Shown here one piece after another: positions 7,649 to 63,132 of a DNA stretch of 64,000 nucleotides. A program made the position numbers and the translations under genes. The stretch's first letter is position 1, and each line of letters begins with the position of its first letter. Source of the DNA: Minisyncoccia bacterium (GTDB lineage Bacteria; Patescibacteriota; Minisyncoccia; Phycocordibacterales; UBA5272); assembly GCA_039809325.1 (NCBI GenBank), contig JBDHUS010000001.1:391-64390 (forward strand), given 5' to 3'. Below the pieces are notes generated by a model that saw only the letters and a list, made by a program, of their open reading frames with translations, was not told where the DNA came from and searched no databases.

Positions 7649-8680
7649 TTAAGGATTAGGACAATCTTTAACCACTATTCCTGTAAAAGTTGTTTTCTGC
7701 CCTGTTTGTACTACTAAAGCCTCCCATGTTTCTTTACCAACTTCTCCATCTACACCCAATCCATTTACTTTTTGAAAATTTTTAACAAAAGCAGCATCAG
7801 CTTCATCATATGTTGTACTAAAAGTATAATTACTTGGCATACAATTATGCTTTTTTAATAAATTCTCAAGTAAGGTAAAAGCTTTTTTATCTGGTGAAGC
7901 ACCTGCTTCTAATGTAGACTTTGCTCCTATTTTAATAACTGGATATAAGTCTTTATTATCAAATACATTTTCTCTTTTTACTCCTCCAGCATCATTTTGT
8001 ATAGGACTATTTTTAGGTCTACATTGCCCTACTTCACCTTTTTTTAATGAAGCGCCTCCAGGACCTAAACAATATAATCCTGAAACACATTGTGATTTTT
8101 CTCCTTCTTGTACAACACAAGTCTCACCAGTTTTTTTAGTATTAAGAAAATCATCTTCATTACCCAAAACATTTTTTTCAGGTTTTTTCTCACCACTACC
8201 AGTACCCCCTCCACTACCTGTATTTAATGTTGCAAATCTTACAGGTTCAATAACTATTTCATTCCCTTTTATTTGAAGTAGCCCTTGTGCTAATTTTATA
8301 ATTCCCCAAACGGAAACCATAACAAAAAGAGAAATAAGTCCCCACATCATAAATTCTTTTCCTTTTTTTAATTCATTACCATCTTTTCCTTGAGCTCTAT
8401 CGTAAATAAATTTTGCAAGCCCATAAAAAAATATAACAAATGCTGCAGTCATTAAAAGAGTGCTCGCACTAGTTAATACATTATTAGTAATATTGTTTGC
8501 TACTTCTTTAAAGCTTTGACTTGCTGTGTATGCATTATCTTGTGCGAAAACTAAATTTAAATTCAAAAGAAAAATAAAAAGAAAAATAGAAATTGATTTT
8601 ATTTTTATTTTTATATTATTTATTTTCATATTTTTATTTATTAAACTTTGATTTAAAATTATTAAGGTAATATTACACAT
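7649..8680 (-). CDS. secreted protein with a pilin-like two-helix module, a Cys-rich region and a C-terminal peptidoglycan-binding-like (PG_binding_1) motif
   Basis: Signal peptide, then TM1/TM2 (FFYGLAKFIYDRAQGKDG...FMMWGLISLFVMVSVWGIIKL). The C-terminal DEADAAFVKNFQKVNGLGVDGEVGKETWEAL resembles PG_binding_1. Confidence 0.5.
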   Translation of the reverse strand: MCNITLIILNQSLINKNMKINNIKIKIKSISIFLFIFLLNLNLVFAQDNAYTASQSFKEVANNITNNVLTSASTLLMTAAFVIFFYGLAKFIYDRAQGKDGNELKKGKEFMMWGLISLFVMVSVWGIIKLAQGLLQIKGNEIVIEPVRFATLNTGSGGGTGSGEKKPEKNVLGNEDDFLNTKKTGETCVVQEGEKSQCVSGLYCLGPGGASLKKGEVGQCRPKNSPIQNDAGGVKRENVFDNKDLYPVIKIGAKSTLEAGASPDKKAFTLLENLLKKHNCMPSNYTFSTTYDEADAAFVKNFQKVNGLGVDGEVGKETWEALVVQTGQKTTFTGIVVKDCPNP

Positions 8681-9744
8681 TTCCCCGTAGATCCTGCTTT
8701 TTGTGTAGAACTTTTACAATAATATCCTCCCACACATTCTGTGTTACTATTTCCACCTTCTAATACAGTACAAATTTCTCCTGGGGCTTTTTTAGAATCA
8801 GGAAGAATTGTACATTTTCCCGTAGATCCTGCTTTTTGTGTAGAACTTTTACAATAATATCCTCCCACACATTCTGTGTTACTATTTCCACCTTCTAATA
8901 CAGTACAAATTTCTCCTGGGGCTTTTTTAGAACCAGTTGGAGAAATAGCTTTTGATTCTAATTTACAAGTGCCTTTTTGTGTACCTATTAATTCTACTCC
9001 TCTTTCATCTTGACAAGAAAGACCTGGACCGCAACTATTAGATTCTGTTGTCATACCTCCTAAACATTGCTGATTAAGCTGTAGTCCTACTTTTCTACAT
9101 ATTCCTTCTCCACTTGATAATGGTCCTCCTGTTAATTTATCTCTACAACCTAAACCTGTATCACAAATAAATCCAGGGGTGGTCGCTCCGGCAGTGCAAG
9201 CATCTCCTTCTGAAATATTTGCTCCTACATCTCCTCCTACATCTCTACCTAATATACTAGGATCTGGCTTTTTCTCATCAAATACTCCACCTCCACCTTG
9301 AGAAGGTTTATCTGATTTGGTTGTATCACAAGATCCATTAACACAAATTCTTGGTAAATTTATATCATTATTACCTTGCATACCTAAAATACCTTGTACT
9401 AATTTTATAATGCCCCAAACAGATACAAGTATAAATAAGGCGCCTAGTCCCCAAGTCATACCTTTTTTATCTCTTGCTAAACTTTTTTCATCACCTCTTG
9501 CTCTGTCATAGATAAATTTCACAAGTCCAAAAAGAAATGCCGCAAGTGCTGCACCACTAAAAAGTATTACTAAATTATCTACTATATTTTTATTAAAATT
9601 TAAAATGATTCCTCCAACATCTGCAAAGTCTGGCGTGTTATTAAATATGTTACCAGAAGTAGCCGCTAAAGAATGATTTAAAATCAAAGCAAAAGATAAA
9701 ATAAAAACTATAATTAATTTAAATTTAATATTTTTTTTAGACAT
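8662..9744 (-). CDS. secreted protein with a pilin-like two-helix module and multiple Cys-rich knot-like modules, including a perfect tandem 45-aa repeat
   Basis: FLFGLVKFIYDRARGDEK...GMTWGLGALFILVSVWGIIKL is followed by repeated C-x-C-x(2)-G-L/Y-x-C modules. The final 45 aa are duplicated exactly. Confidence 0.5.
   Translation of the reverse strand: MSKKNIKFKLIIVFILSFALILNHSLAATSGNIFNNTPDFADVGGIILNFNKNIVDNLVILFSGAALAAFLFGLVKFIYDRARGDEKSLARDKKGMTWGLGALFILVSVWGIIKLVQGILGMQGNNDINLPRICVNGSCDTTKSDKPSQGGGGVFDEKKPDPSILGRDVGGDVGANISEGDACTAGATTPGFICDTGLGCRDKLTGGPLSSGEGICRKVGLQLNQQCLGGMTTESNSCGPGLSCQDERGVELIGTQKGTCKLESKAISPTGSKKAPGEICTVLEGGNSNTECVGGYYCKSSTQKAGSTGKCTILPDSKKAPGEICTVLEGGNSNTECVGGYYCKSSTQKAGSTGKCVILP
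8681..8950 (-). repeat. direct tandem duplication, 2 x about 135 bp, inside a coding region
   Basis: About 118 nt are identical between 8682-8800 and 8816-8934 (cccgtagatcctgc...ggggcttttttagaa). They encode KKAPGEICTVLEGGNSNTECVGGYYCKSSTQKAGSTGKC twice. Confidence 0.85.
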
Positions 9745-9798
9745 AGGTTTGTGGCAGAATTTATATCTAAAATTATACCATGATTATTTTCATTTTTT

Positions 9799-10392
9799 TT
9801 ATTTGAACAACATATTAAAATTATAAGTTTTTCCAACCTGATTATATTTCCTATGGTCTTTAGGAAGTGCCCGTAAACTTACACTCATTTTAAAGGTAAA
9901 AGGCCTGTCTTCTTTAGCGTTTTCTAGACCGTCTCTAAAATACAAAGCTAAATCTTCTGCGTTCATATAAAAACTCTTTTTGTTAGAAGAAATTCTGGCA
10001 TAATTTAAGCCCTGCAGATTAGAGTCTGCATCTTCCCCAGGAAAACTCCATGAAATCTCGGACAAGCTTTCGTCAAAACTATATTGGTCAGCATACTCAG
10101 GATTTATAGAAACTCTTAGTTCTGATGGGTTCCCTGTAGTGTCATATTTGTAAGTGTGCAAAAAGAGTTCTGAAGGATCCACGTCTTTTTTTGTATTATT
10201 TGATACGCTTGAATTATTTGTAGCTGGAGTATTATTGGTAGCTGGAGTATTTGTGGTTCTTTCATTTTGAGGTGAAGAGGTATGAAGAGGTATTTGTTTC
10301 TTCTTCTCCCTCCGCTTCAGCGGTTGTATTATTAGAATTAGAATTATTGTTCTTAGTGTCTGTAGTATTTTGAGTTCCAACATTTCCTCCAA
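9799..10392 (-). CDS. hypothetical protein with Asn/Thr-rich low complexity; N-terminal limit uncertain
   Basis: ORF from a TTG start. The TPATNNTPATNN region is encoded by short tandem DNA repeats at 10225-10260. Confidence 0.25.
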   Translation of the reverse strand: MEEMLELKILQTLRTIILILIIQPLKRREKKKQIPLHTSSPQNERTTNTPATNNTPATNNSSVSNNTKKDVDPSELFLHTYKYDTTGNPSELRVSINPEYADQYSFDESLSEISWSFPGEDADSNLQGLNYARISSNKKSFYMNAEDLALYFRDGLENAKEDRPFTFKMSVSLRALPKDHRKYNQVGKTYNFNMLFK

Positions 10393-10417
10393 CAGACGCG
10401 TTATTTTTATTGACTCC

Positions 10418-11302
10418 CTATTGAGAATTATTACTTGATGATTCTACTTTAACTTCTCCCGCAATATCATTTAATGTATTTAACATTACTGCCACTGCTG
10501 CGGAAGCTGCTGCCGCAATAGCAATACCAATAACTACCCGGACTGCAAAAGCTTTTGCTTTTTTTAAAGCCTCAGCATTGCCCTGTGCTTTTACAAATAG
10601 AAATCCAGACCAAATAGTAGCCCCAACAAGAGCGGGAGCTGCTATATAATTTATTAAAAATCTTATAGCTAGCAATATTAATGATGGGACAGTTTGATTT
10701 GGAAAAAAATTTGCATAACCAACACCTTCTTTCTCAGTTTCTCTAGCAAGATTCTCAGAAATATTATTAATAGGATCTGCGGCCATAGCATGATTAAATG
10801 GAAGGATACTATTACTTGTATTTGCTAGTAAATCCTTTAATAGATTTAAAACTTCTGTTTGCATACCAAGTGCAGCCATAATACCAAGCACAAGACCCAT
10901 ACCAACAACAATTATTAGAAGAGCATAAATAGAATTCTTAATACGTTTTTTCCATTTTATTAAAAATTGAGAATTGTTACCATTATATACATAACCTATG
11001 CCAGATATTATCAACATCAATACAAGAGAGATAATTACTAGATAAATAGCTAACTGCACCAAAACTTTAAGAAGTTTTATGGCATCTTTTGGGGTACATC
11101 TTTCATTTAAATCTGAAGAATATGGGTCACATGGCATTAATCCGTGACTTCCACTACTCAAATTTGATAAACCTTGAAGGGCTTTCTCTTCTGCACTTTG
11201 AGCTTCTGCTTTTTTTACTAAAGGTGAAGAAAAATTAAAAGCAAAAATAAATAATAATGCTATCAATAATATTTTTGCTTTTTTCATAAATCCTTTTTTC
11301 AT
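10418..11302 (-). CDS. polytopic membrane protein with signal peptide; possibly VirB6/TrbL-like
   Basis: Signal peptide followed by 4-5 TM helices and an Ala-rich last helix. The topology resembles VirB6/TrbL, but no specific motif is recognised. Confidence 0.3.
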   Translation of the reverse strand: MKKGFMKKAKILLIALLFIFAFNFSSPLVKKAEAQSAEEKALQGLSNLSSGSHGLMPCDPYSSDLNERCTPKDAIKLLKVLVQLAIYLVIISLVLMLIISGIGYVYNGNNSQFLIKWKKRIKNSIYALLIIVVGMGLVLGIMAALGMQTEVLNLLKDLLANTSNSILPFNHAMAADPINNISENLARETEKEGVGYANFFPNQTVPSLILLAIRFLINYIAAPALVGATIWSGFLFVKAQGNAEALKKAKAFAVRVVIGIAIAAAASAAVAVMLNTLNDIAGEVKVESSSNNSQ

Positions 11303-13315: not shown

Positions 13316-15802
13316 TTAAAGTATAGCAATACTTGCCACACTATCTTTATCTCTTAATTTCATTATTCTTACTCCTTGTGTTGCCCTGCCTAATGTTGGT
13401 ATTGTTTTTAATTCTGTTTTGATAACTTGTGAATTTTTAGAAACTGCCAATATTTCCGCTTCTTCATTTACTATTACTTTTGCTACTATTAATTTTCCTG
13501 TCTTTTCTGTAATGCTTACTGTCTTTATTCCAGATCCACCTCTTCCTTGAGTTTTATACTCATCTAGCTTTGTCATCTTTCCATATCCGTTTTCTGTAGC
13601 GACTAGTAATTTTGCTTTTTTGGCATCACTTTTTTTAATCACATCACATGCTGCAATATTATCTTTCTTATCTAGTTTCATACCACGCACCCCACCTGCA
13701 GTTCTACCCATTTCGCGAACATCACTTTCTGCAAAACGTATTGATTGCCCTTCTACAGAAGTCATAATAATATCATCCCCAGGCTCTACAAATAACGCCG
13801 ATAGTAATACATCATTACTGTCAAGCTTAATAGCAATAAGTCCACTTCTTCGAACATCTTTAAAACTTTCAGCGCTAGACTTTTTAATAGTTCCGTCTCT
13901 TGTAATCATAGCAAGTGAAAATGTAGAATTTTTAATATCCTTTGGCATTGGAAGTATACTTGTAATTTTTTCATCACTTGAAACTTGAAGATAATTCATA
14001 ATACTCTTTCCACGAGTTGCGCGCCTTCCTTCTGGGATATCATACATTTTAATTTGATAAACTTTTCCTTTATTAGTAAAGAAAAGTAAATCGGAATGGG
14101 TACTTGTAGTTAAAGATATAGTAATAAAATCTTCCTCTTTTGTATTCATATCTACTACACCAACACCCCCTCTTTTTTGTGTCTTAAATTCATCCGGATC
14201 TGTTCTTTTTACATATCCTCCTGCTGTATAAATAAGAACAGCTTCTTTTTCAGCTATTAAATCTTCTGGATTAAATTCTTTTGCTTTGTGAGAGACTATT
14301 TTTGTCCTTCTATCATCACCATATTTTTCTCTTATCTCCAAAAGCTCATCTTTTATAATCTTTAGCATTTTCTTTTCACTTGCTAAAATCTCTTTTAATT
14401 CTTTTATCGCTTCTTGTACTTCTTTAAGTTCATCTTCTATTTTCTTTCTTTCAAGACCAGCAAGTCTTTGAAGCTTCATATCAAGAATAGCTTGAGCTTG
14501 TAGAGGACTAAACTTAAATTGTTTTTGAAGTTCATTATGAGCTTCTTCTACTGATTTTGATTTTCTAATTAATTTAATTATCTCATCAATATGATCTAAT
14601 GCTTTTTTTAATCCAAGCAAAATATGTTCTCTATCTTCTGCTTTTTTTAATTCAAATTCTGTTCTTCTTCTAACTACTACTTTTCTATGTTTTATAAATT
14701 CTTCAAGGGCAGATTTAAGATTAAGAGTCTGTGGTACTCCATCTACAAGAGAAACTAAATTGACATGAAAAGTATCTTCGAGCTGTGTATGTTTATATAA
14801 ATAATTTAAAATCTTTTGCGGCTCTATACCATTTTTTAGATCTATCACTACACGGATATCTTTTGTAGATTCATCTCTTAATCCTTTTATTCCTTCTATC
14901 TTTTTCTCACGCACCAAGTCTGCTATCTTTTCTATCATATTTGCTTTTACAACTCTGTATGGTATTGAAGTAATAACTATTTGATAGCTACCATTTTTTA
15001 ATTCTACTATTTCAGCTTCACCACGAGTTACTATTCCTCCACGACCTGTAGCATAAGCATGCATAATATCATTCTTACCATAAATAACTCCACCTGTTGG
15101 AAAGTCAGGACCTTTTACTATTTCGCAAAGATCTTCTGTAGTGGCGCTATTATTATCTATAAGATAAGTCGTAGCATCTATTAGCTCAGTTAAATTATGA
15201 GGTGGTATATTTGTTGCCATACCTACTGCAATACCAAGAGTCCCATTTAAAAGAAGATTTGGTACAGCGGTTGGAAGAACTGATGGTTCTTTTTTAGTAC
15301 CATCAAAGTTAGGCTTCATATCTATTGTGTCCTTTTCTATATCACGAAGCATTTCAGAAGATATTTTAGACATTTTTGCTTCTGTATATCTGTACGCTGC
15401 GGCTCCGTCTCCATCAATAGAGCCAAAGTTACCTTGTCCCCAAATTAATGGATAACGAGTTTTAAAATCTTGCGCCAAATTTACCATCGCATCATATACA
15501 GAAGAGTCTCCATGCGGATGATATGATCCAAGTACATCTCCTACCACTGTTGCAGATTTTTTAAAGCGAGCTCCAGCTGAAAGCCCGTTTTGATGCATGG
15601 AGTAAAGTATTCTACGATGTACCGGCTTTAATCCATCTCTAGCATCTGGCAAAGCGCGATCAGTAATCACACTCATCGCATAGTTGATATAGCTTTTCTT
15701 CATCTCTTCCACTATATCCATGTCTACAATTTTGTCGTGCTTCAAATTTTCAGAGTTTTCAAGATTAGAAGATTCTTCGATTTTTGTATTATTTTTTACC
15801 AT
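13316..15802 (-). CDS. gyrA: DNA gyrase subunit A
   Basis: 828 aa with the motif [29 protein letters not shown]. Confidence 0.95.
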
Positions 15803-15814
15803 AGTTTTTATAAT

Positions 15815-15870
15815 TTAATAAAAGAAAAAATGCTATATTTATATATAAATTATAGCATTTTTAAAATAGA
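15815..15870 (-). terminator. hairpin terminator downstream of the tailspike-like gene (AATGCTATA/TATAGCATT inverted repeat)
   Basis: Perfect 9-bp inverted repeat flanked by T/A runs between 15886 and the gyrA start. Confidence 0.4.
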
Positions 15871-15885
15871 TTTGAAAGTTAAAAA

Positions 15886-18800
15886 TTAGCTTGCAGGAGC
15901 GGGATCATCCGGATTTACCAAAGGTATTGTAGAGGAAGAATTATCAGTATTTTCTGGATCTGTAGAACTAGCAACAGTTGTGTCAAGATTATCTGCTGAC
16001 TCTCCTCCGCCTATTGATTCAGGTTCTTCTTCTGCGCCGCTCCCTCCGGTCGCGCCGCTTCCACCCGCATCCACACCACCTCCACCAATAGTATTAATTT
16101 TATTAATAGCATTTTCCAAAGTGTCACCATCAGTACAAAATCTTGATCCGTCAGATTTTTTGAAACAAAGTTTATTTTCTATTTCTACTCTATTAAAGTA
16201 TCCAACAACCGCAGTTATCTTTGCTACAACAAAATCATGAATAATAGAAATTTTATTATTAACTTTTTCTAAAATAATATTTAAGACAGATTTATTATAA
16301 TTATTATTTTCATTAATAATTAAATTAAGTGTGTTTGTTGCGTTTGTATTATCTATCATATCTGGAGTACTAGAACCTGTCAGAGTTGTGAATTGATCTT
16401 TCAAAGCATTCACAATAGTTGCTATGATTGGCCTATCTTGAAGAGATAAATATCCATTAGGTGATGTTGATACTGCTTCTGGTATTGCATTTTGTATGTT
16501 TTGAGCAGAGAAACCAGTATAGAAGTTATTAGTATCTAGTCCGGATGTTTCATTCCATTTGTATGAGATTGGGTTTATTTTTAATAGATCTAGTATAGAT
16601 CTATTGTATGGAGTTATGTTTTCTTTTAGTCTTTCGTCTGATGATACTGATAGGTTACCATTTGCGTCAGTGGTGAGTGTACCGGCTCCGAAACTAGAGA
16701 ATCTTATTGTACCTGATGCATGTAATGTAGCTGTTGGTGATGTTGTTCCTAGTCCTACTCCAATGTTACCTCGTAGGAATGTTTTAGTGATGGAGGTGTT
16801 ACCGAGGGTGACGGAGTTGGAGCCGTTTCCTGTGGCATTGTATCCTATTACTATTTCATTAGAACCACCATCTGTAAGAGCTTTAGTTAAAGAACCTAGA
16901 AGTACGGAAGTACTCATAAAAGTTAGCTTTACAGACCCTCCTGATATAAATTTTCCTGCGTCAGCACCAATTACAACATTATAATCTCCTTTTGTTACAT
17001 TAAGCATAGAGTTTATTCCTATAGAGCTATTCCCGTACCCAGCATCAAGGGAATATAAAGATTGTACTCCTATAGCCACGCTAGCGCTAGAACTTGTAGA
17101 ATTTCTTAAAGAAGATAGACCTATAGCAACATTACTTCCTCCATTTATATTATTAAAAAGTGTAGCTACGCCTACAGCAACATTCAAAGAACCCGTTCTA
17201 TTCTCTTTTAAAGACCCCTGTCCCAATGCCACATTATTATATCCGGTAGTATTTGAACTTAATGTATTATCTCCTACAGCTGTGTTGTAGGAACTTTCAT
17301 AATTGTATGTTGCCATTTTACCCATATTAAAATTACCTGAATTCTTACCTAAAAATATATTACTTCCTACAGTAGTCACTGCCCCATTATCTCCATAATT
17401 AAAATTATGTAAAAATGGGACTCCGTCTGAATATATTACTCCTATCACTTCTGATGAAGTAGAATTTTGTGTTGATGGTAGATATATATTTGATTCTGAT
17501 TTTAAAGAAGAAAATGTTCCAATATTTGGCTTAGCTATACCTATTGCCATTGGTGAAGAGAATATTGAAGAAAGATTACTTGCTAATAATACATTCGGTA
17601 TATTATTTACTATATTTTCTGTTTGAAAGTTTTCTTTTATGAATTTAGCTACTTGTTCTGCTACTACTTTATATCCATAGTTATTTAAATGCAGCCCATC
17701 GTAAGATAAAGAACTGGGTATTACATCATTATCAATATCTATTAAATCTTGCGCTGTTGGTATAATATTTGCATCTTGTAATCCTCGCTCTATTAAATAT
17801 GTACGGATATCAAAATAATTATTTGGATAAGTTGACGCAAGATCATTATTTAATTGTATAATGGTATTATAATTAACTTCTCCTTTTCTTTCTAAATTTT
17901 TATTTGCATTTATTACTGATAAAATTAAATACTTTTGATTTCCATTCAGATTTGCAACCATAGCAGCTATATCTGCTTCTGCTTGTGTTGGATTATTAAA
18001 ATTATTCCTTCCTGTCCAGATAACTGATATACCATTATTTAAATTTCTATTATCAATAATAAAAGTAGATGAAGTTGTAGAGACAATTAATCCGTTTACA
18101 TCTCTTGAAAATAAAATTGATCCAGAACTATATTTTAATGTACCATATATTCCAGCAAGTGTTCCTTTTATACCGTTAGCAGGACTTTGAGCTGTTACTG
18201 GCTCATATCCTATAGGAAAAGTAACAGTTACTGTCGCACCTGCTGTTGCTGGTATTTCTCCACCAACTATTGTTACAGTTGGTTGGTATGCTCCTTGACG
18301 GACAGCAATTTGAGTTGAGCCTTGACCACCTACTCCATTATTATAAACAAGAATATTCAATATTCTAGATAAAACATTTGGATAATTATTGCCAACCGTA
18401 GAGCCACCTCCCGATGTCAAACTATCCCCCCAAGCCGTCACAAAACTACTAGGATTTACTGTGCTTACTACCTCACTATTATCAGCAAAATTTAACCCTA
18501 ATGAAGCTAAAGTTGGTGTAGGATTATTTACTATTGTAGTGCTCTGTGTTGGGACAAATTGATATTGTGTAGAATTTGGAGTAAATATAGACGCCCAATT
18601 TGTATTAGTATTTGTTGTATTTATTGGTATATCTAAATTATTTGCTGTAGTAAATGATTTTTTATCTATTTCTGAAAGCTTTGCATTTAAAGTATTTATT
18701 TGTTTTTGTAAAGCATTTATTTCTTGAGAATAATCTTTATTATCAGTATTTTTATCTACTATTTCATTTGTTTTATTTATTTTTTCTGAACTCTTTGTAT

Positions 18801-19030
18801 CTGTATTATTTTCTACCCCTTCTGTATTTAGATTATTATTTTGATTATTAAGATTATCTATATTATTAACTGATGAAATAGATACTCCTAATACTTCCCC
18901 CCCCCCCCGCAGTATTTTGAGTATTTGTAGTATTTACTCCTTCTTTATTAGTATTATCTTTGTTTATTATAGTGAATACGGTAGTTGATACTATTGCTAA
19001 TCCTGCTATTGTGAGAAGTATGTTTTTCAT
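15886..19030 (-). CDS. large secreted tailspike-like protein: signal peptide, SGNH/GDSL esterase, Asn-rich repeats and a C-terminal intramolecular-chaperone (peptidase S74) domain. The reference sequence is frameshifted at a poly-G tract
   Basis: - The body (15886..18933) is one open frame containing the GDSLT block (AWGDSLTSGGG), DGLHLN, many N-x-G repeats and SSDERLKENI.
- The ATG at 19030 encodes a signal peptide (MKNILLTIAGLAIVSTTVF) in a frame that is +1 relative to the body.
- A G12 run (coding strand) lies between them; G11 or G14 would fuse the two. Confidence 0.6.
18897..18908 (-). repeat. homopolymeric C12 (+ strand) / G12 (coding strand) tract
   Basis: Read directly from the sequence. 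It is the only G/C run of 8 or more in a 30% GC window. Confidence 0.95.
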
Positions 19031-19070
19031 AGTTTTTTTATTTATATGAGTTTATTTTAACATGATATTT

Positions 19071-19120
19071 TAGAGAGAAGTGGAGAGAGTGGGTGGGGTG
19101 GGGAAAAGTGGAGGGAAAAA
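19071..19120 (+). promoter_or_regulatory. polypurine / G-run tract (GGGTGGGGTGGGG...GGAGGG) in a divergent intergenic region
   Basis: Seen directly in the sequence. It lies between the ATG at 19030 (-) and the ATG at 19139 (+). Confidence 0.5.
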
Positions 19121-19138
19121 GTACTATATTATTAAAAA

Positions 19139-19633
19139 ATGTTAAAATTAAATATAATGAAAACTAGTATATATATTGATGGAAATAACCTATACCGCTC
19201 TGCAAAAGAACTTGATTTTGAAATTGATTATAAAAAGTTCCGTGTCTGGATTACTCAAAAATACAATACTAAAAATATATTTTTATTTATAGGATTTTTA
19301 GAAGATAGAAAAGATTTTTATAAATATTTAGAAGATTGTGGATTTAATTTAATATTTAAGGAAGCAGTATTACACGAAGGAAATATCAAAGGTAATTGTG
19401 ATGCGGAATTAGTATTAAAATCAGTTGATGATTTTCATCTTAAAAATTTTGATAAATTTATCTTAATTTCTAACGATGGTGACTTTGGATGTTTGGTTGA
19501 ATTTTTAATAAAAAGAGATAGCTTTGATACTATCATATCCCCTGATAGAAAAAAGTGTTCTATTTTACTTAGAAACAAAACTAATAAGATTTTGTATTTA
19601 AATGAAGTTTATAAAAAATTCTCTAAAAAATAG
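19139..19633 (+). CDS. NYN-domain (LabA-like) putative ribonuclease
   Basis: Motifs IYIDGNNLY, GNCDAEL and ISNDGDFGCL match the NYN/PIN-like nuclease pattern. Confidence 0.6.
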   Translation: MLKLNIMKTSIYIDGNNLYRSAKELDFEIDYKKFRVWITQKYNTKNIFLFIGFLEDRKDFYKYLEDCGFNLIFKEAVLHEGNIKGNCDAELVLKSVDDFHLKNFDKFILISNDGDFGCLVEFLIKRDSFDTIISPDRKKCSILLRNKTNKILYLNEVYKKFSKK

Positions 19634-19655
19634 ATAATTATATGAAAAGAAAAAA

Positions 19656-19702
19656 CTCCCGATATGGACGCATCCATATAGGGATTTTTTTCATAGTGAT
19701 GT
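19656..19702 (+). terminator. rho-independent terminator after the NYN gene
   Basis: Hairpin CCCGATATGGA-CGCA-TCCATATAGGG followed by T7. Confidence 0.55.
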
Positions 19703-25314: not shown

Positions 25315-25701
25315 GGGAGTGTCAGGATTCGACACATAATTCTTTGTAAATGTGGTTTCCGATAATGAAAATATATCGTTAAATCTTTTCAAAATATGTT
25401 GCAAACAAAACTGCAAAAGCTGTGCCTTCTCCTTTCGGATGGGCATTCGCTCCGGTAGCCGCTTAATTAAGCCGCTTTGGTGCTGACCTTTATTTACATA
25501 TCGTAAAGAGCTCGGCAATATAAAGAATATGTGTAGAAAATTTTAAGTTAGCTTTCTCTAAAATTTTTGAAAAATAAAAAGCTAAGCGGAGCTATTTTGT
25601 TTATTTAATAAGCTTCGACGAAAATCAATAAATAAACTATGAAACTAGACTCATTTATAAAAATTATCTGCACGGGGGTTCAACTCCCCCCACTTCCACA
25701 A
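25315..25701 (+). ncRNA. ssrA: tmRNA (SsrA); CCA not encoded
   Basis: - The 5' end GGGAGTGTCAGGATTCGACAC resembles GGGGCUGAUUCUGGAUUCGAC.
- The 3' end CGGGGGTTCAACTCCCCCCACTTCCAC-A forms a T-arm plus an acceptor strand that pairs with the 5' GGGAGUG.
- The tag ORF ends ...GWAFAPVAA-TAA (25464-25466) followed by TTAA. Confidence 0.7.
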
Positions 25702-25852
25702 AAATAATGGAGAAAAAGCAATGCTTTTTTGTAGTATATTTTTTGAGATGTGGAGGAAGTTGAACTGAGTCGCCTGCGAAGCCACGAGCAAAACGAGTGA
25801 GGCGGCGAAGCGGGGTCGAGAAACAAGGAGCAAAGCGACTATGTTTGGTGAC

Positions 25853-25876
25853 CAACTCCCCCCACTTCCACAAAAA
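25853..25876 (+). repeat. exact 24-nt direct repeat of the ssrA 3' end (CAACTCCCCCCACTTCCACAAAAA); att-like
   Basis: Identical to 25681-25704 and 172 bp downstream. The intervening segment is GC-rich with partial inverted similarity. Confidence 0.7.
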
Positions 25877-39463: not shown

Positions 39464-40048
39464 TTATATCATGCTATGATTTAGTACAAAAACAATATGC
39501 TCCTTGACTTCTTTTTCATTTAAGAGAAAGTGCGTAAAAAAATCTTTCATTTCAAAATTTTTGTATTCTATAATATCTTTCACCCCTATAACTTTTGCAT
39601 CAGCATATCCTGTGTCTACAAGCACCAAATAATAAATCAATATTTTTAACTTAAGCGGGTCCATCTGGGTAAGACCATTTGAACAAATCGTTAAAAATTT
39701 TAACTTTTCAAAAAGCTTTTTATATGTTTTCTTTTCCTCTAAGAATCTACTTATTGTTTCAGAGATTAATGATTTTATTTCAGAAAAATATTGTGAAGTG
39801 CCAAGATTTTCTTTTATCTCTTCTACCCCAGTGAGTCTCCAAATATCTTTTCCTTTTACAAGAGTCATATTTAAAAACTCATTTTTTTTAGCATTCATGC
39901 GGAGCTTGGCATTTATTTTTCTTATACTTCTTGCAAGTACAAAAATAATACCAAAATCTTTGGTCCAAACTTTATAAACAAGATCATTTTCGTCTTGTGC
40001 ATATTCTTTCAAAATAAAAGCTTCAGTTGTGTATTTTTCAATGGACAT
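39464..40048 (-). CDS. possible short RecO-like protein
   Basis: The N-terminal OB-fold-like pattern EAFILKEYAQDENDLVYKVWTKDFGIIFVLARSIRK resembles the RecO N-domain. Confidence 0.35.
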   Translation of the reverse strand: MSIEKYTTEAFILKEYAQDENDLVYKVWTKDFGIIFVLARSIRKINAKLRMNAKKNEFLNMTLVKGKDIWRLTGVEEIKENLGTSQYFSEIKSLISETISRFLEEKKTYKKLFEKLKFLTICSNGLTQMDPLKLKILIYYLVLVDTGYADAKVIGVKDIIEYKNFEMKDFFTHFLLNEKEVKEHIVFVLNHSMI

Positions 40049-43000
40049 TAATTTTCCAAGCTAATTTTTTCCTCATTTCCTTCAATAAATTTAATTATAG
40101 AAAGCTTACAATCTTTTTTTAACTCTTCTTCAAGAGATTTGATAAAATCAATCCTTTCTTTACCAGATTCTACAAATAGTACAGCAATATCGCTTGGAGT
40201 AAGATTTTTATCTTTTCTTAAATCTTTTATTTTCCTTGTTAGCTCACGATAATCACCTTCCTTTTTAAGTTCTTGTGTTATTTCTAAATCAAGAATTACA
40301 TTTTGATTTTCAAAATATTCTTTAGTATTGTCTAACAATGCCTCTTTTACATTTATTTCCTCTTTCAAAATATCAAGATATTTTTTATCTATTTTTTTAT
40401 TTATAAATAATTTTGAAAGTGGCTGACGAACTGGAATATTATTTTTTTGTCTTTGCATCAAAGCTTCTGTTACAAGAGCTCTCACCTCATCCATTTCTTC
40501 TATAACTTTTTCATCTATAACAAATATATTCTTTGGCCAAGCTTCTAAATGTGCAGATTCTTTTTTCTCTAAAGTGTATTTATTTATAGACAAATAAATT
40601 CTCTCTGCCAAAAATGGCATAAATGGAGCAATTATCTTTGAGAATTCATTGAGTATTTTGTAGAGTGTAAATTCGGCATTCATTTTCTCTTCCTCGCCAG
40701 ACTCTCCTTTTAACCTTTCACGAGATCTTCTTAGCCACCAAGTAGAAAGGTCGTCGATGAACTTTTCAAGTGGACGAGTCGCTTGATCAAGCTTATACTC
40801 ATTCATATTTTTTGTTACTATCTCTAAAACTTCGGCAACTCTTGTGAAAATCCAAATATCCATTGGATTTTCTATTTTTCTTTCTTTTGGAGGAAGTTCA
40901 ATATTTAACATTTCATAAAAACTCAAAACATTTTCTAATTTTGCCACAACTTTTTTATAAGTCTCTTCTACGTTTGCATCTGAAAATGGAATATTTTCTG
41001 CACACATTGCTGGCGACGAAAGCAGAGTCTGACGAAAAGCGTCAGCACCATATTTTTCAACTAGCACCATAGGATCAGTATAATTCCTTTTGCTCTTACT
41101 CATTTTTTCTCCATCAGCTGCCGTTAAAAGACCATTTACTATTACATTTTTATATGGAGATTTTTCAAAAATACCTACAGAAATATTTAAAAGAGAATAA
41201 AACCAACCTCTAGTTTGATCAAGGCCTTCTGCTATAAAATCAGCTGGAAAATTTTTATTAAAAATATTCTGATTTTCAAATGGATAATGAATTTGTGCCA
41301 TCGGCATAGAACCTGACTCGAACCAACAATCAAATACATCTGGGATTCTCTCCAATTCTTCTTTATTCTCTCCTAATAATTTAATATTATCTATATAAGG
41401 TTTATGAAGATTTATTTTTCCTGTTTCATCTCTTGGCACTAATTTTAAATCTAATTTTCTTATTTCTGCATTTTTAGGATAGAGTTTCGTTTCTTCTGTC
41501 AATTCATCTTCTATAAGTTTTTCTTTCGTTATAAGCTCTCCTGCAAAAGCTATCATTCTCATAGGGCCTCCATGAGTTACTATTAAAATATTTTTTCCTT
41601 CATATCTATTTTCTAATTCATATATTCCTTTCATCACTCTTTTTATCACATCATTATGTGATTCTCCTCCGCCGAGTTTTAGATCTAAATTTAAATAATT
41701 AATACCGTAATCTTTTTCTATTTCTGTATTAGGTTTTTTGCTATAAGTTCCTAGATTGATTTCTGTAAAGTGCTCATCTATTATTACTTCTTTTTCTTCT
41801 GCCATTATTTTAGCGGTTTCAAAAGCTCTAAGATACGGAGAAGATATTATTATGTCAAAATCTATACCTATTTCTTCTCTTGCTTTTTTAACCTGCTCTA
41901 TACCATTTTCTGTAAGATGATTATCTGGATCCATGTCTGTTTCCTCTATACCTAATACATTGTGTTTTGCCTCACCATGCCTCATTATATAATATTGGTT
42001 TTTTGGTTTATTAATATTTTCTTTAGCTAATTCTTCCAAAGAAGATACTATTTTTATCTCATTTCCATTTTTATTTTTCCATATAGGTATAGGAGCCCCC
42101 CAATATCTACTTCTTGATACTGCCCAATCACGTGCCCCTTCAAGCCATTTTCCAAATCTCCCATCACGAATATTTTCTGGTATCCAATTTACTTTAGAAT
42201 TCTCTTTTAATAATTCAGATTTTATTTCTGGAACTTTTATAAACCAAGAACTAGTAGCATAATTAAGAAGAGGTGTCTCACATCTCCAACATGTAGGATA
42301 AGCATGTATTAATTTTTCTTTTGCAAAAATAAGCCCTCTACTTGCTAAACTTTTTATAATTAAAATATCAGCTCCTTGATTATCGTCTTTTGTCTTAACT
42401 TTCACTCGAGGAAAATCTATGACTTCTTTTGTAAACTCTCCATTCATTTCTACATGTCTTATAACTGGTAAAGATTTTTCTTTAGATAAATTCAAATCAT
42501 CTTCTCCAAAAGCTGGAGCAATATGTACTATACCTGTCCCTGTATCCAAAGAGACAAATTCACCATTTACTATGATATAAATATTCTCTTTATTTTCTAA
42601 TTTACTATTTATGAAATAATCAAAAACTGGTTTATACTTTTTTCCAACTAATTTTTCTCCAAAAAAAGTTTCAATTATTTCTACATTCAAATTTACTTTT
42701 TTAAATACTTCTTCTGCTCTTTCTTTTGCTAGAATATAAATCTCTCCTGATTCAGCTTTAGCTTTTATATATTCAAATTTTTCATTTATGGCAAGTGCAA
42801 CATTCCCTGGAAGAGTCCACGGCGTAGTAGTCCAAGCTAAAAGAAAAGTATTTGGCTCATTTTCAAGCTCAAATTTTGCGGTTACAGAAATATCTGTTAA
42901 ATCTTTATATCCTTGCGCCACTTCAGATTGAGCAAGTGTTGTCTCACATCTTGGACAAATATGCATACTTTTATATCCTTCAAATACAAGGCCTTTTTTG

Positions 43001-43500
43001 TAAAGCTCAGAAAAAGCCCACCAGACTGACTCTGTATAATTTGGATCCATTGTGCTGTATGGATTTTCCATATCTATCCATCTACCAAATCTTGGTATTG
43101 TTTCTTTCCATTCTTTTTCATATGCAAATACACTTTCTTCTGCTTTTTTATTAAAATTATTTATTCCAAATCCTTCTATTTCTTTTTTAGAATTTAATTT
43201 AAATTTCTTTTCAATCAAATTTTCAATCGGAAGCCCATGTGTATCCCAACCCCATACACGACGAACATATTTACCATTCATGGTTTGAAATCTTGGTATT
43301 GCGTCTTTTATTGTTCCAGCTAAAAGATGGCCATGATGAGGAAGACCTGTTGCAAATGGAGGCCCGTCATAAAAAGTAAAACTTTCTGGATTTTCTACCT
43401 CACCGGGATTCTTAAGAGATTTTTCGAATATTTTATTCTCTTTCCAAAATTTTAATATCTCTAATTCTTTTTCGTTTATACTTTTGTTTTTATTATTCAT
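40048..43500 (-). CDS. ileS: isoleucine--tRNA ligase with an inserted histidine-phosphatase (PGM-like, RHG) domain; start moved to MNNKNK
   Basis: HIGH (PHHGHLLAG), WDTHGLPIE, WTTTPWTLP and KMSKS (GEKMSKSKRN). A roughly 185-aa insert (aa 520-705) carries YYIMRHGEAKHN and LIVTHGGPMR. Confidence 0.9.
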   Translation of the reverse strand: MNNKNKSINEKELEILKFWKENKIFEKSLKNPGEVENPESFTFYDGPPFATGLPHHGHLLAGTIKDAIPRFQTMNGKYVRRVWGWDTHGLPIENLIEKKFKLNSKKEIEGFGINNFNKKAEESVFAYEKEWKETIPRFGRWIDMENPYSTMDPNYTESVWWAFSELYKKGLVFEGYKSMHICPRCETTLAQSEVAQGYKDLTDISVTAKFELENEPNTFLLAWTTTPWTLPGNVALAINEKFEYIKAKAESGEIYILAKERAEEVFKKVNLNVEIIETFFGEKLVGKKYKPVFDYFINSKLENKENIYIIVNGEFVSLDTGTGIVHIAPAFGEDDLNLSKEKSLPVIRHVEMNGEFTKEVIDFPRVKVKTKDDNQGADILIIKSLASRGLIFAKEKLIHAYPTCWRCETPLLNYATSSWFIKVPEIKSELLKENSKVNWIPENIRDGRFGKWLEGARDWAVSRSRYWGAPIPIWKNKNGNEIKIVSSLEELAKENINKPKNQYYIMRHGEAKHNVLGIEETDMDPDNHLTENGIEQVKKAREEIGIDFDIIISSPYLRAFETAKIMAEEKEVIIDEHFTEINLGTYSKKPNTEIEKDYGINYLNLDLKLGGGESHNDVIKRVMKGIYELENRYEGKNILIVTHGGPMRMIAFAGELITKEKLIEDELTEETKLYPKNAEIRKLDLKLVPRDETGKINLHKPYIDNIKLLGENKEELERIPDVFDCWFESGSMPMAQIHYPFENQNIFNKNFPADFIAEGLDQTRGWFYSLLNISVGIFEKSPYKNVIVNGLLTAADGEKMSKSKRNYTDPMVLVEKYGADAFRQTLLSSPAMCAENIPFSDANVEETYKKVVAKLENVLSFYEMLNIELPPKERKIENPMDIWIFTRVAEVLEIVTKNMNEYKLDQATRPLEKFIDDLSTWWLRRSRERLKGESGEEEKMNAEFTLYKILNEFSKIIAPFMPFLAERIYLSINKYTLEKKESAHLEAWPKNIFVIDEKVIEEMDEVRALVTEALMQRQKNNIPVRQPLSKLFINKKIDKKYLDILKEEINVKEALLDNTKEYFENQNVILDLEITQELKKEGDYRELTRKIKDLRKDKNLTPSDIAVLFVESGKERIDFIKSLEEELKKDCKLSIIKFIEGNEEKISLEN

Positions 43501-43504
43501 AATT

Positions 43505-43745
43505 TTGATTGAAAATTTGTTAATAAATTCTTTAAATTTTTCTAAAATAAAAATCACCCAAAACTCTTTCAAGTTCAAGGGCGATTTTGTCGCGGTACCA
43601 CCTTGATTCCAGAAAATATTTCTGCTTCATTTATGAGGGTCTATTTGGAGCGACACCTCCGGCGTCGCCCCTTTCTTCCTCAAGCTCTGGAGTGATTAGT
43701 TCCGTCTCTGCTTTATACTTTTATTATATCAAAAAATATAAAAAT
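43505..43745 (-). promoter_or_regulatory. T-box leader upstream of ileS
   Basis: - The minus strand reads AATCAAGGTGGTACCGCGACAAAATCGCCCTTG, matching the T-box consensus AAUNAGGGUGGNACCGCG with its antiterminator.
- The competing terminator is AAAATCGCCC...GGGTGATTTT followed by a U-run.
- An AUC (Ile) triplet followed by A lies upstream (CUAAUCACU). Confidence 0.55.
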
Positions 43746-60711: not shown

Positions 60712-61017
60712 AAATTTGTAGCGGTTTTAATTTTTAATATCTAAATGAGTCTCTCTGACAAAAGACTCTCCACCATTGCGATTCTTGTTTCCAAGAACCC
60801 ATATCCGTTTCCAGATATGACCGCTACAGTGACTCTGATGGAGAGTCTTTTATACTGTAGCGGATATTTTCTAACCATGCCTAGCAAATGCTAAGTTTAG
60901 GCTATTTGTAATAATATTTTAGCATAAATACGAGAGTATTTATAGCATTGTGTATCTTAGCTTAAATAAAGGAAAAATAATAACGTGAATGCTAAGATAA
61001 TGCTAAAAAAAGAAAAA

Positions 61018-63132
61018 CTATCCCTCCACAACTTGTCTGACTTTTTCTGCTAGTTTTTCCGAAAATTCTTTTATATTAACATTTGCTATATTATCTGAAT
61101 AAAATGTTTTAACATGCTCAGTACCTGAACCTATACCAAGCCCAATAATATGAACATCTTTTTCCTGTTCTATCTTTTTTACTATTTCTTTCAAATCATA
61201 TCCTTCATGCTGTGGAGACTCTACTGGAACACCATCAGATAGCACAAATAATATTTTCTTTTTTTCTTCTCTATTTTTTATTTTCTTATACATTTCGTCC
61301 ACAGCCCATCCATCATCATTATAATCTGCTCTACCACCACTATGATTATCAACTTCACTTAACATATCTTCTGTACCCTCTCTAAGATCATCAGTATAAT
61401 CTTCGTCAAATTCTTTATATTCATATAGTCTATCATTAAATCCTGCCACAGATAATTTAATCCCTATATTTCTAAGAGCTTCGCAAAGGACTACTACAGC
61501 CTTATAAGTTTCACTGATTTTCGTACCACTCATACTTCCAGATAAATCTACCAATATTTGAATTGCGTAGTCTTTTTCTAAAGGTAATTCTTTTTTCATA
61601 AAAACGTTTAGACTGTCTACTCCTGTGGCTTCACCTCTAATTTCTCTTTTTACGTCTATCATCATTCCACTTCTATAACCAGAATTCCAAGCGTTTCTTT
61701 TTCTCTCAATAAAAATATCTCTTAATTCATTTTCTAACTTAAATATTATGGGAGATACATCTTCAAGAACCTTTTGGTAACTATTTTGTCCATTATATTT
61801 TTCTCTATCAAAATCTTTTTTAGCTTTTTCAATAGCTTCCTTTAAAGCTTGTCTCATTTTATCTCTTCTTTCTCTCTCATTATCTTTTGAGTAATCTTTT
61901 TCTTCTCTTTGAGATTTATCATCTTTGGATTTTTCTTCCGAATCACTACTTGTTTCTTTCTCTTTTTGTAGTTCAGCTTTAGATTCTAAGTATTCATTCA
62001 TCTCTTTCTCTATTTCTCTAATTATTTGATCTGCTTTTTCTTTTATTTCTTGATCAGACATTTTAGAAGGATTGGATTTATTATCTTGAATATCTGGATC
62101 ACTTAGAGTAGAGTTTACATCTTGTTGTGAATTTTCATTTTGTTTATTAGATTTTTCTCCATCCATATTATCAGGTCTTTGTTCTTCTTCAGTCTTATTA
62201 GAATTATCTTTAGTTTCACCTTCTTTACTTTGTGGTTTCCGATTATCTTTTTCACCCTCTCCAGAATTTTGCTCTTTATTTACTTCTTGATTTTTATTTT
62301 CACTTTTTTGATTATCATCTTGTCTTATTTTATCTTCTGTGTCCTTTGTATCTGAATCAACTAAAGTTTTAAAAACAGGCCAGACTTCTTCTAGATTTAT
62401 TTTATATGACTCTCTAGCATACTCTTGTACGACTTGCTCTCCATCTAATTTTTCTCCATTTAACAGCATACCTTTCTCTACCTCTTTTCTAAGTGGATAA
62501 GTTAGCCAACTTCTTCTTGCAGAACTAAGAGTTTTTTCTACCACTTCTATTACTTCCTTTGGAAGTTCTTTGTCTATTTCTATCTTTTCTCCTTTTGTCT
62601 CAGCAATCCATTGCTTTATGTATTCAAGTCCTGCTTGCATGAATCTGGGGACTCTTCCAACTTTTTGTTTTGCTTTTTCTTTCATTTTTCTTTCAAATTC
62701 AGCATCGAGATCATACGAAAATATCATCTCTTGCTTAAACTTTGGTACATTGTCGGCGACATAGTTATTCATCCTAGGATCTTCTATTGCATTCATCATA
62801 GAAGAAAACCCTGGTTGATTCCATATTTCATCTGGAATGATACCTATAACCCTAGAAATTTTTCTATGTCCAGCTTCATGTTGAATAACAAAACGTAGAT
62901 AATCAATTGGTTTTTCCAATAAATCTTTTGCGTCACACCTCACAATATTATTCTTAAAATCCCAATGCCAACCTTGACCCTCATTAACCTCTACCTTCAT
63001 ACTTACATCAGTTGCTACCATTCTACAAAGTGGAGTCAACAAAGATAATCTTTGTTTTATTATTTTTCTGTCTTCATAATTAAAATTATCAAGAATACTG
63101 TGTTTTTTACCAAAAGATTCTAATCTGTCCAT
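61018..63132 (-). CDS. vWA-domain protein with an N-terminal HExxH (DUF2201_N-like) domain and a long acidic low-complexity linker
   Basis: HEAGHRK; roughly 250 aa rich in E/K/D/S/N; C-terminal MIDAS motif ILVDLSGSMSG ... VLSDG. Confidence 0.6.
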   Translation of the reverse strand: MDRLESFGKKHSILDNFNYEDRKIIKQRLSLLTPLCRMVATDVSMKVEVNEGQGWHWDFKNNIVRCDAKDLLEKPIDYLRFVIQHEAGHRKISRVIGIIPDEIWNQPGFSSMMNAIEDPRMNNYVADNVPKFKQEMIFSYDLDAEFERKMKEKAKQKVGRVPRFMQAGLEYIKQWIAETKGEKIEIDKELPKEVIEVVEKTLSSARRSWLTYPLRKEVEKGMLLNGEKLDGEQVVQEYARESYKINLEEVWPVFKTLVDSDTKDTEDKIRQDDNQKSENKNQEVNKEQNSGEGEKDNRKPQSKEGETKDNSNKTEEEQRPDNMDGEKSNKQNENSQQDVNSTLSDPDIQDNKSNPSKMSDQEIKEKADQIIREIEKEMNEYLESKAELQKEKETSSDSEEKSKDDKSQREEKDYSKDNERERRDKMRQALKEAIEKAKKDFDREKYNGQNSYQKVLEDVSPIIFKLENELRDIFIERKRNAWNSGYRSGMMIDVKREIRGEATGVDSLNVFMKKELPLEKDYAIQILVDLSGSMSGTKISETYKAVVVLCEALRNIGIKLSVAGFNDRLYEYKEFDEDYTDDLREGTEDMLSEVDNHSGGRADYNDDGWAVDEMYKKIKNREEKKKILFVLSDGVPVESPQHEGYDLKEIVKKIEQEKDVHIIGLGIGSGTEHVKTFYSDNIANVNIKEFSEKLAEKVRQVVEG

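Follow-up and report, generated by a model that had tools for sequence, protein, structure and literature searches.

A G12 tract between the leader and the body of a phage-fibre-like esterase gene in a Patescibacteria chromosome: a candidate slipped-strand contingency locus

A 64-kb segment (64,000 nucleotides; hereafter the window) of the chromosome of a Patescibacteria species contains a gene for a large phage-fibre-like esterase, the fibre gene, in which a short leader frame and a long body frame are separated by a run of 12 guanines. We consider it likely that the gene is a slipped-strand contingency locus, in which the length of the run gates production of the esterase, and that it has been caught in the OFF state in this assembly. 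Such a switch had been proposed in the initial annotation of the DNA; comparison with other genomes, i.e., the G11 alleles of the same locus, the variable tracts in homologues and the lack of such tracts in phages, supports this proposal, short of proof. The locus has several properties of its class: an in-frame repeat of hypermutable length (at least about eight G/C), changes in which toggle between full-length and truncated products, and polymorphism of the tract among near-identical genomes (G12 and G11 here; G10, G11 and G8TGG in homologues from Yonathbacteria). We also count among these properties that the tract appears to be kept by selection rather than by coding need, because GGG codons are rare, the tracts recur at different codons, and they are missing both in phage homologues and where a homologue encodes Gly-Gly without a long run.

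The tract and the frames on either side of it

The initial annotation described an ATG at 19030 on the minus strand, a G12 run after 41 codons and an early stop, followed by a continuous body whose sole start codon is a GTG at 18441; frame analysis bears out each element of this layout. The leader frame begins with MKNILLTIAGLAIVSTTVFTIINK (longer stretch, MKNILLTIAGLAIVSTTVFTIINKDNTNKEGVNTTNTQNTAGGGG) and enters the tract, C12 on the plus strand at exactly 18897-18908, which occupies codons 41-44. Following the glycines of the tract, the frame continues as a frameshifted tail of 10 residues (SIRSIYFIS) and ends after 54 codons, at a stop codon at 18866-18868. The body frame extends without interruption from 18933 to its stop at 15886, and the first ATG, GTG or TTG in it is GTG 18441. 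The two frames share 68 nucleotides (18866-18933). When the tract length is varied in silico, G11 joins them into a single open reading frame (ORF) of 1047 amino acids and G14 into one of 1048, in agreement with the predicted protein of about 1047 residues; with G10, G12 or G13, translation terminates after 46-54 codons.

The initial annotation had pointed to a 12-nucleotide G/C run in a genome of 30% GC. The tract is the sole G/C run of at least seven in the window (28.9% GC), where the next longest is six; from the base composition, approximately 2.5e-5 C12 runs would be expected. GGG accounts for 9.3% of glycine codons, and no other in-frame pair of adjacent GGG codons is found in 58 window genes. 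The 164 open codons without a start that precede the GTG are longer than all 3,969 off-frame open runs within window genes, the maximum of which is 105. The rarity of the tract, taken together with the long start-less open frame, indicates that the arrangement is not due to chance.

In the public annotation, the gene is split into a 54-residue protein and an 851-residue protein (P0031) that starts at GTG 18441. The ATG at 19030 lies in an A/T-rich context like that of other gene starts in this genome, and the GTG is unlike them. The GTG was rejected as a start site, as it lies within the first β-strand of the esterase domain, four residues before the GDS motif, and has no export signal. Initiation there (Val197) would remove the export signal and cut the first strand, so that the annotated 851-residue product is unlikely to be functional. 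As a practical matter, users of the public record should be warned that the start of this ORF has been placed inside the esterase fold. Orthologues beginning at the GTG without a leader, which would have spoken for the internal start, were not found: all orthologues with a complete 5' end have an N-terminal export signal. An apparent loss of the leader in one homologue, P0002, was discounted, as a gap of N's in the scaffold truncates the N-terminus of the database protein; the gene itself does encode a signal peptide.

Gene starts in the window are mostly preceded by A/T-rich leaders, with a Shine-Dalgarno-like motif at four of the 58. The TATAAT-like box that many of these genes have 7-12 nucleotides upstream of the ATG suggests that their mRNAs are leaderless or have very short leaders. 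A scan for sigma-70 promoters and terminators gave fewer matches than were obtained in shuffled sequence. The only G-quadruplex-type motif in the window, GGGTGGGGTGGGGAAAAGTGGAGGG at 19091-19115 on the plus strand, lies 60 nucleotides upstream of the fibre-gene ATG, and it is conserved in both sister-species contigs described below (L001 and L002).

The encoded protein

The N-terminus had been taken for a canonical signal peptide. Its hydrophobic character is confirmed by hydropathy analysis (a 19-residue segment with a mean Kyte-Doolittle value of 2.35); the cleavage site is not, since no small-x-small motif follows, and an uncleaved signal anchor appears more likely than a cleaved peptide. 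After the anchor comes a linker rich in Asn and Thr, for which a helix is predicted at residues 101-124.

The next region has all four sequence blocks of the SGNH/GDSL hydrolases (the GDS nucleophile, Gly, GxN and DxxH), represented by GDS (Ser203, encoded at 18421-18423), GVGG, GRNN and DxxH. The Pfam match to the SGNH family is below the cutoff (24.1 vs 32.9 bits), and chains of the tailspike structures 9sij and 9sim in the PDB are matched with E 1e-14. In the AlphaFold model, the esterase is predicted with a pLDDT (per-residue confidence score) of about 90, the mean for the whole protein being 60.5 and the model being poor outside this domain. Foldseek superposes the esterase on GDSL hydrolases with TM (structural similarity) scores of 0.70-0.74, normalised to the target; matches to pyruvate kinase, with TM below 0.17, were disregarded. 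In an alignment of six homologues (A2; another alignment, A1, is too divergent for a locus search), residues D202, S203, G232, N342, D439 and H442 are invariant.

C-terminal to the esterase, the shaft region produces PHROG matches to tail spike and virion structural proteins and is modelled with regular short strands. It is followed by a Peptidase_S74 domain (PF13884; 45 bits vs a cutoff of 22, E 1.2e-11), in which S792, R795 and K797 (P0001 numbering) are likewise invariant among the six homologues. The protein as a whole is classified in PHROGs as a tail fibre or tail spike. Thus the earlier description of the product as tailspike-like holds, with support from the PHROG class, the tailspike-related SGNH domain and Peptidase_S74. 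Among phage proteins, the esterase is matched best by tail fibres from phages of Rhodococcus, Arthrobacter and Gordonia. The lineage of the window carries the Saccharibacteria label of its closest genome match, and the known hosts of Saccharibacteria are Actinobacteria, which makes these matches notable.

We propose that replication slippage would add a base to the tract or remove one at high frequency; each population would then hold both ON and OFF cells. In OFF (G12) cells, a 54-residue leader peptide would be made and the body could not be translated. In ON cells, the protein would be exported by way of its N-terminal hydrophobic segment and would trimerise with the aid of the C-terminal Peptidase_S74 domain; this domain would then be released by self-cleavage at the conserved Ser/Lys dyad. 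The fibre might bind and de-esterify a surface glycan of the bacterial host that carries the epibiont. Switching, together with mosaic recombination and transfer between species, could then serve as bet-hedging over host attachment or over attack by phages and other surface-directed agents. Surface location, the substrate of the esterase and trimerisation are suggested by homology and hydropathy.

Tract alleles in relatives and alternative explanations

A protein search found a full-length, in-frame sequence, P0001 (1042 amino acids), 97% identical to the product of the fibre gene; another orthologue, P0030 (1047 amino acids), is also in frame. At the nucleotide level, the same locus is present in a sister species, in a Logan contig from DRR438479 (L001) and in contig CAZIHL010000014 of the GTDB representative metagenome-assembled genome (MAG; L002). 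Both have G11 and are in frame, so that the in-frame G11 allele which had been predicted is indeed found, in two independent assemblies and in surrounding DNA that is identical apart from mosaic patches. L001 and L002 belong to the same species; they are 98.3% identical overall and identical outside the fibre gene.

Between the window and these two contigs, a block (15832-19455) that comprises the fibre gene with its promoter, as well as the 5' part of the neighbouring NYN-domain gene, is identical save for the tract and the patches, while the genes on either side are only about 84% identical. Outside the patches, the tract length, G12 vs G11, is the sole difference in more than 3 kb of DNA free of substitutions. 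An identical block amid such flanks implies that the whole block was exchanged between species very recently. The patches agree with L002 in one place and with L001 in two others. These comparisons indicate a fibre cassette that was transferred recently between the two species and whose interior is a recombination mosaic.

Other sources add no alleles of this exact locus. Exact look-ups of the gyrA and NYN proteins retrieved only two contigs, MEGAHIT assemblies of the same strain from sibling ENA samples, and both end before the tract: L008 ends at 18724 and L009 starts at 19123. The gap of 398 nucleotides between them (18725-19122) holds the tract and the G-rich promoter element; it fits either heterogeneity of the tract or poor coverage, and decides nothing. 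A DNA pattern of exact flanks with a variable gap gave no further alleles in the metagenomes of the Joint Genome Institute (JGI) or in IMG/VR, and exact look-ups of the 851-residue body, the 54-residue leader and P0031 gave no additional contigs.

We performed a degenerate-pattern scan of the JGI metagenomes and found 80 homologous loci, few of which contain any G/C run of at least eight. Among them are contigs L011 and L012 (47.7% GC), which carry a homologue with 31% identity over 721 amino acids (E 4e-58) among chromosomal genes for an aldolase, L25, an SLT transglycosylase, HicA and TypA; identical proteins are encoded in a MAG of Candidatus Yonathbacteria. Here the tract is located within a signal peptide, MNPRRVIFVLTLSLILGGGVLYKSPVSFA followed by AE. 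With G10 (L012, L091) the ORF encodes 1197 amino acids and is ON; with G11 (L011, L090), or with G8TGG, in which a G-to-T change interrupts the run (L092), a stop codon follows three codons past the tract and the gene is OFF. These loci are 99.9-99.98% identical to each other, and over 6.4 kb L090 and L091 are the same but for the tract and one base 12 nucleotides upstream of it. Products on record comprise the OFF-type protein of 1147 residues on four contigs and the ON-type of 1197 residues on three. Linked to the tract alleles is this G/C substitution about 12 nucleotides upstream (ATG CTC vs ATC CTC), which gives either Met or Ile at one position of the signal peptide. We also observe that mutations in these loci cluster at the tract amid otherwise identical DNA.

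An unclassified contig, L031 (40.5% GC), has an in-frame G8 in the signal peptide MNPYKYFLLVTVIILMGGVNSVFA, followed by AS. It has a second G8 (123-130) about 100 nucleotides upstream of the ATG of the homologue, beside a TGATATACT box, which may be a promoter-level element of phase variation in addition to the in-frame one. Other homologues, e.g., L027, L028 and L033, have Gly-Gly without a long run at the corresponding place (LSLFGGH). In 540 kb of JGI loci, three of the five non-redundant G/C runs of at least eight, with L011 and L012 counted once, fall within the 6% of the sequence that surrounds the start of the homologue (binomial P = 0.002), and the loci in question have the lowest GC content among those with such runs. 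One G8, in L039, was discounted, as it lies upstream in DNA of 58% GC, apparently within a neighbouring gene. In 63 viral loci with homologues (380 kb), no run of at least nine is seen. The tract is at codon 42 in the window and at codon 17 in Yonathbacteria and L031, and the N-termini are not alignable; these differences imply that the switch probably arose more than once. A homologue with 45% identity on L007, the contig of P0002, has a normal signal peptide and no tract; judging from the surrounding resolvase, Phage_rep_O, ArdC and SMC-like genes, it resides on a mobile element of another organism.

A sequencing or assembly error was one of two alternatives named in the initial annotation, the other being programmed frameshifting. 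On this view the true tract has 11 G, the gene is on throughout, and the split is a miscall of one base. Homopolymers of 12 are prone to error on every platform, more than 3 kb of the window outside the mosaic patches differ from L001 and L002 by a single base, and the breaks in the MEGAHIT contigs on either side show the region to be hard to assemble. A one-G difference in otherwise unchanged DNA is what would be expected of a hypermutable tract, and a miscall would look identical. Yet the window has about 100 A/T runs of 7-9, and no second broken gene is found among the same-strand frame pairs that were examined; the neighbouring genes that were tested span their Pfam models end to end. Moreover, an error of this kind accounts for the OFF state and not for the maintenance of a run of 11-12 G in a genome with 29% GC and few GGG codons, and it leaves variable tracts at the same functional place in homologues from other lineages unexplained. 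We regard a miscall as unlikely; even if G12 were one, the locus would remain a candidate contingency locus. Somewhat less probable still is an ordinary recent pseudogene, created by a one-off frameshift with no adaptive, reversible switching. The window allele is out of frame and is the single OFF assembly on record for this locus, as such an origin would have it, but there is no second lesion: the 3-kb body is fully open and identical to that of intact alleles, the lesion falls exactly within an improbable tract that recurs in homologues, and ON and OFF alleles coexist in a Yonathbacteria population at 99.98% identity. The same mixture of in-frame and out-of-frame Yonathbacteria alleles argues against programmed recoding, by which the full-length protein would be made from G12 through transcriptional slippage or +1 ribosomal frameshifting. 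A run of GGG codons is slippery in principle, and the 68-nucleotide overlap would allow a shift in or soon after the tract to join the frames. Recoding sites, however, are conserved in the shifted configuration, whereas the nearest relatives, with G11, have the gene in frame. Neither a stimulatory structure nor a Shine-Dalgarno-like element was noticed, although no specific search was made, and the genome hardly uses Shine-Dalgarno motifs. We consider recoding very improbable.

Several facts weigh against a slipped-strand contingency locus itself. The locus of the window is known from three assemblies, two with G11 and one with G12, and the leader peptides expected from G9, G10, G13 and G15 are absent, by exact look-up, from a collection of 15 billion proteins. 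The tract alleles of Yonathbacteria, being linked to the ATG/ATC difference, could be stable alleles of strains rather than products of rapid switching. Another type of phase variation, by inversion or otherwise driven by a recombinase, was considered and rejected: no convincing inverted repeats are found around 18400-19700 and no recombinase is encoded among the neighbouring genes.

Genomic setting and comparison with known systems

The window is a segment of a bacterial chromosome, with genes for transfer-messenger RNA (tmRNA), tRNA-His, LOOT RNA, ribosomal proteins, several aminoacyl-tRNA synthetases, gyrA, ftsH, smpB and initiation factor 3. The fibre gene is situated between gyrA (13316-15802) and the divergent NYN-domain gene (19139-19633), with the same synteny in the sister species; its neighbours also include genes for a methyltransferase and a metallo-hydrolase, as well as ftsH, smpB and tmRNA, and no adjoining phage genes are seen. 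An origin as a prophage gene or virion component was rejected on account of the housekeeping neighbours, the conserved synteny and the hydrophobic anchor at the N-terminus: the protein is built like a tail fibre but is not a component of a phage. Coordinates of the features are collected in Table 1.

Table 1. Features of the fibre locus, in window coordinates
Feature	Position	Strand	Remarks
Complete gene, ON state	15886..19030	-	1047 amino acids with G11; in-frame orthologues P0001 and P0030
Leader ORF in the G12 state	18866..19030	-	54 codons; anchor at codons 4-22 (18965-19021), then frameshifted tail
G12 tract, proposed slippage switch	18897..18908	-	ON = 3n+2 (G8, G11, G14); G12 = OFF
Body frame of the fibre protein	15886..18933	-	1015 open codons, without a start before GTG 18441
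SGNH/GDSL esterase with inserted β domain	17620..18462	-	Residues ~190-470; Pfam, PDB, AlphaFold, Foldseek
Gly/Asn-rich β-strand repeats, fibre shaft	16855..17382	-	Residues ~550-725; PHROG matches, model
Peptidase_S74 intramolecular chaperone domain	16471..16641	-	Starts at S-D-E-R-L-K (Ser/Lys dyad)
Divergent intergenic/promoter region, fibre gene to NYN gene	19031..19138	.	100% conserved in L001 and L002
Exchanged block: fibre gene, promoter, 5' part of NYN gene	15832..19455	.	100% identical to L001 and L002 except for tract and mosaic patches
Mosaic patch A, C-terminal half of esterase	17680..17991	-	Window same as L002, differs from L001
Mosaic patch B, linker and fibre repeats	16881..17437	-	Window same as L001, differs from L002
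Small third mosaic patch	18007-18052		Window same as L001, differs from L002

Several other features of the window were observed. The last 24 nucleotides of the tmRNA gene (CAACTCCCCCCACTTCCACAAAAA, 25681-25704) are repeated exactly 172 nucleotides downstream (25853-25876), which resembles the scar of an attachment site, left by an element that had inserted in the tmRNA gene. An isoleucyl-tRNA synthetase-like class I enzyme of 1176 amino acids (40048-43578, minus strand) has an unusual architecture, with a His_Phos_1 domain at residues 530-677 inside the catalytic domain. The LOOT RNA (Rfam RF03000, 83.8 bits; 60780-60903, minus strand) lies upstream of a gene with VWA and CobT_C domains (61018-63132). 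The product of 7649-8680 (minus strand) combines a segment resembling pilins of type IV secretion systems with a peptidoglycan-binding domain in one protein; it belongs to a set of several putative surface proteins, all unannotated, that lie upstream (8662-11302).

How epibionts of the candidate phyla radiation (CPR) recognise and attach to their hosts is largely unknown, and likewise how a clonal population with a tiny genome deals with hosts and phages that change. The fibre locus is a concrete, testable candidate for both, as it has the build of a receptor-binding protein, closest phage relatives that infect Actinobacteria, an apparent homopolymer toggle, patchwise recombination and recent transfer. 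If confirmed, it would extend classical contingency-locus biology to the CPR and would provide a genetic handle on host range, with the tract recoded to lock the gene ON (GGAGGTGGAGG) or OFF. Experiments could then address directly how CPR epibionts recognise their hosts and how heterogeneous their populations are. A broader proposal, which we hold tentatively and think possible rather than probable, is that CPR epibionts, in two or more groups at the level of phyla (Saccharibacteria and Yonathbacteria/Parcubacteria), have turned receptor-binding fibres of phages, with SGNH esterase and S74 chaperone, into their own exported organelles of host attachment and have independently added poly-G switches in the region of the export signal, with recombination and movement between species. 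Were this true, cellular parasites of bacteria would possess a phage-like toolkit of host range with bet-hedging.

The mechanism is classical; the group of organisms and the type of gene are new. Slipped-strand loci with poly-G/C tracts in the 5' part of genes for surface structures are well known in Neisseria and Haemophilus influenzae, and polyG phase variation has been described in Campylobacter jejuni (PMC10877375). Like these loci, the fibre gene has a long G run soon after the start in an AT-rich genome, a frame that is ON or OFF depending on the length of the run, a putative surface or host-interaction product, and length polymorphism between near-identical genomes. The differences are in the organism, an ultra-small epibiont from the CPR/Patescibacteria, and in the product, which is a tail-fibre-like esterase and not a glycosyltransferase, an adhesin or a restriction-modification protein. 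A full-text literature search for homopolymer phase variation gave no report from Saccharibacteria, Patescibacteria or CPR.

By class of gene, the nearest analogues are in phages. An intramolecular chaperone of the endosialidase/K1F type is known at the C-terminus of phage tailspikes. The fibre protein resembles the phage tailspikes that combine SGNH and Peptidase_S74 domains (9sij and 9sim) in its SGNH match, the Ser/Lys dyad of the S74 domain and the fibre repeats; it differs from them in that a hydrophobic anchor replaces the virion-attachment domain, in the cellular context, and in the proposed gating of expression by a homopolymer. Phages, too, have switches of this sort: hypermutable polyG tracts in receptor-binding protein genes of Campylobacter phages are mentioned in PMC10877375 with reference to Sorensen et al. 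2021, and contingency loci are described in T-even and other phages (PMC12633550). In both cases, a polyG or simple-repeat frameshift switch is found in genes of the tail-fibre or receptor-binding class and creates subpopulations that differ in surface binding, as we propose for the fibre gene. Unlike the phage loci, the fibre gene is chromosomal, between gyrA and the NYN/ftsH/smpB genes and not in a prophage, and its N-terminal membrane or export signal suggests display by the cell rather than by a virion.

Within the CPR, diversity-generating retroelements are known to act by mutagenic retrohoming; no reverse transcriptase or template repeat is seen beside the fibre gene. The closest CPR report that we found is a hypervariable gene of a Gracilibacterium with 9-mer repeats (PMC6851277). 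What that gene, the retroelements and the fibre locus have in common is hypervariation that is confined to one place, affects a probable surface protein of a CPR symbiont and is read as adaptation to the host. The Gracilibacterium gene and the retroelements, however, vary the sequence of the protein, whereas the fibre locus would toggle the entire protein by means of a homopolymer.

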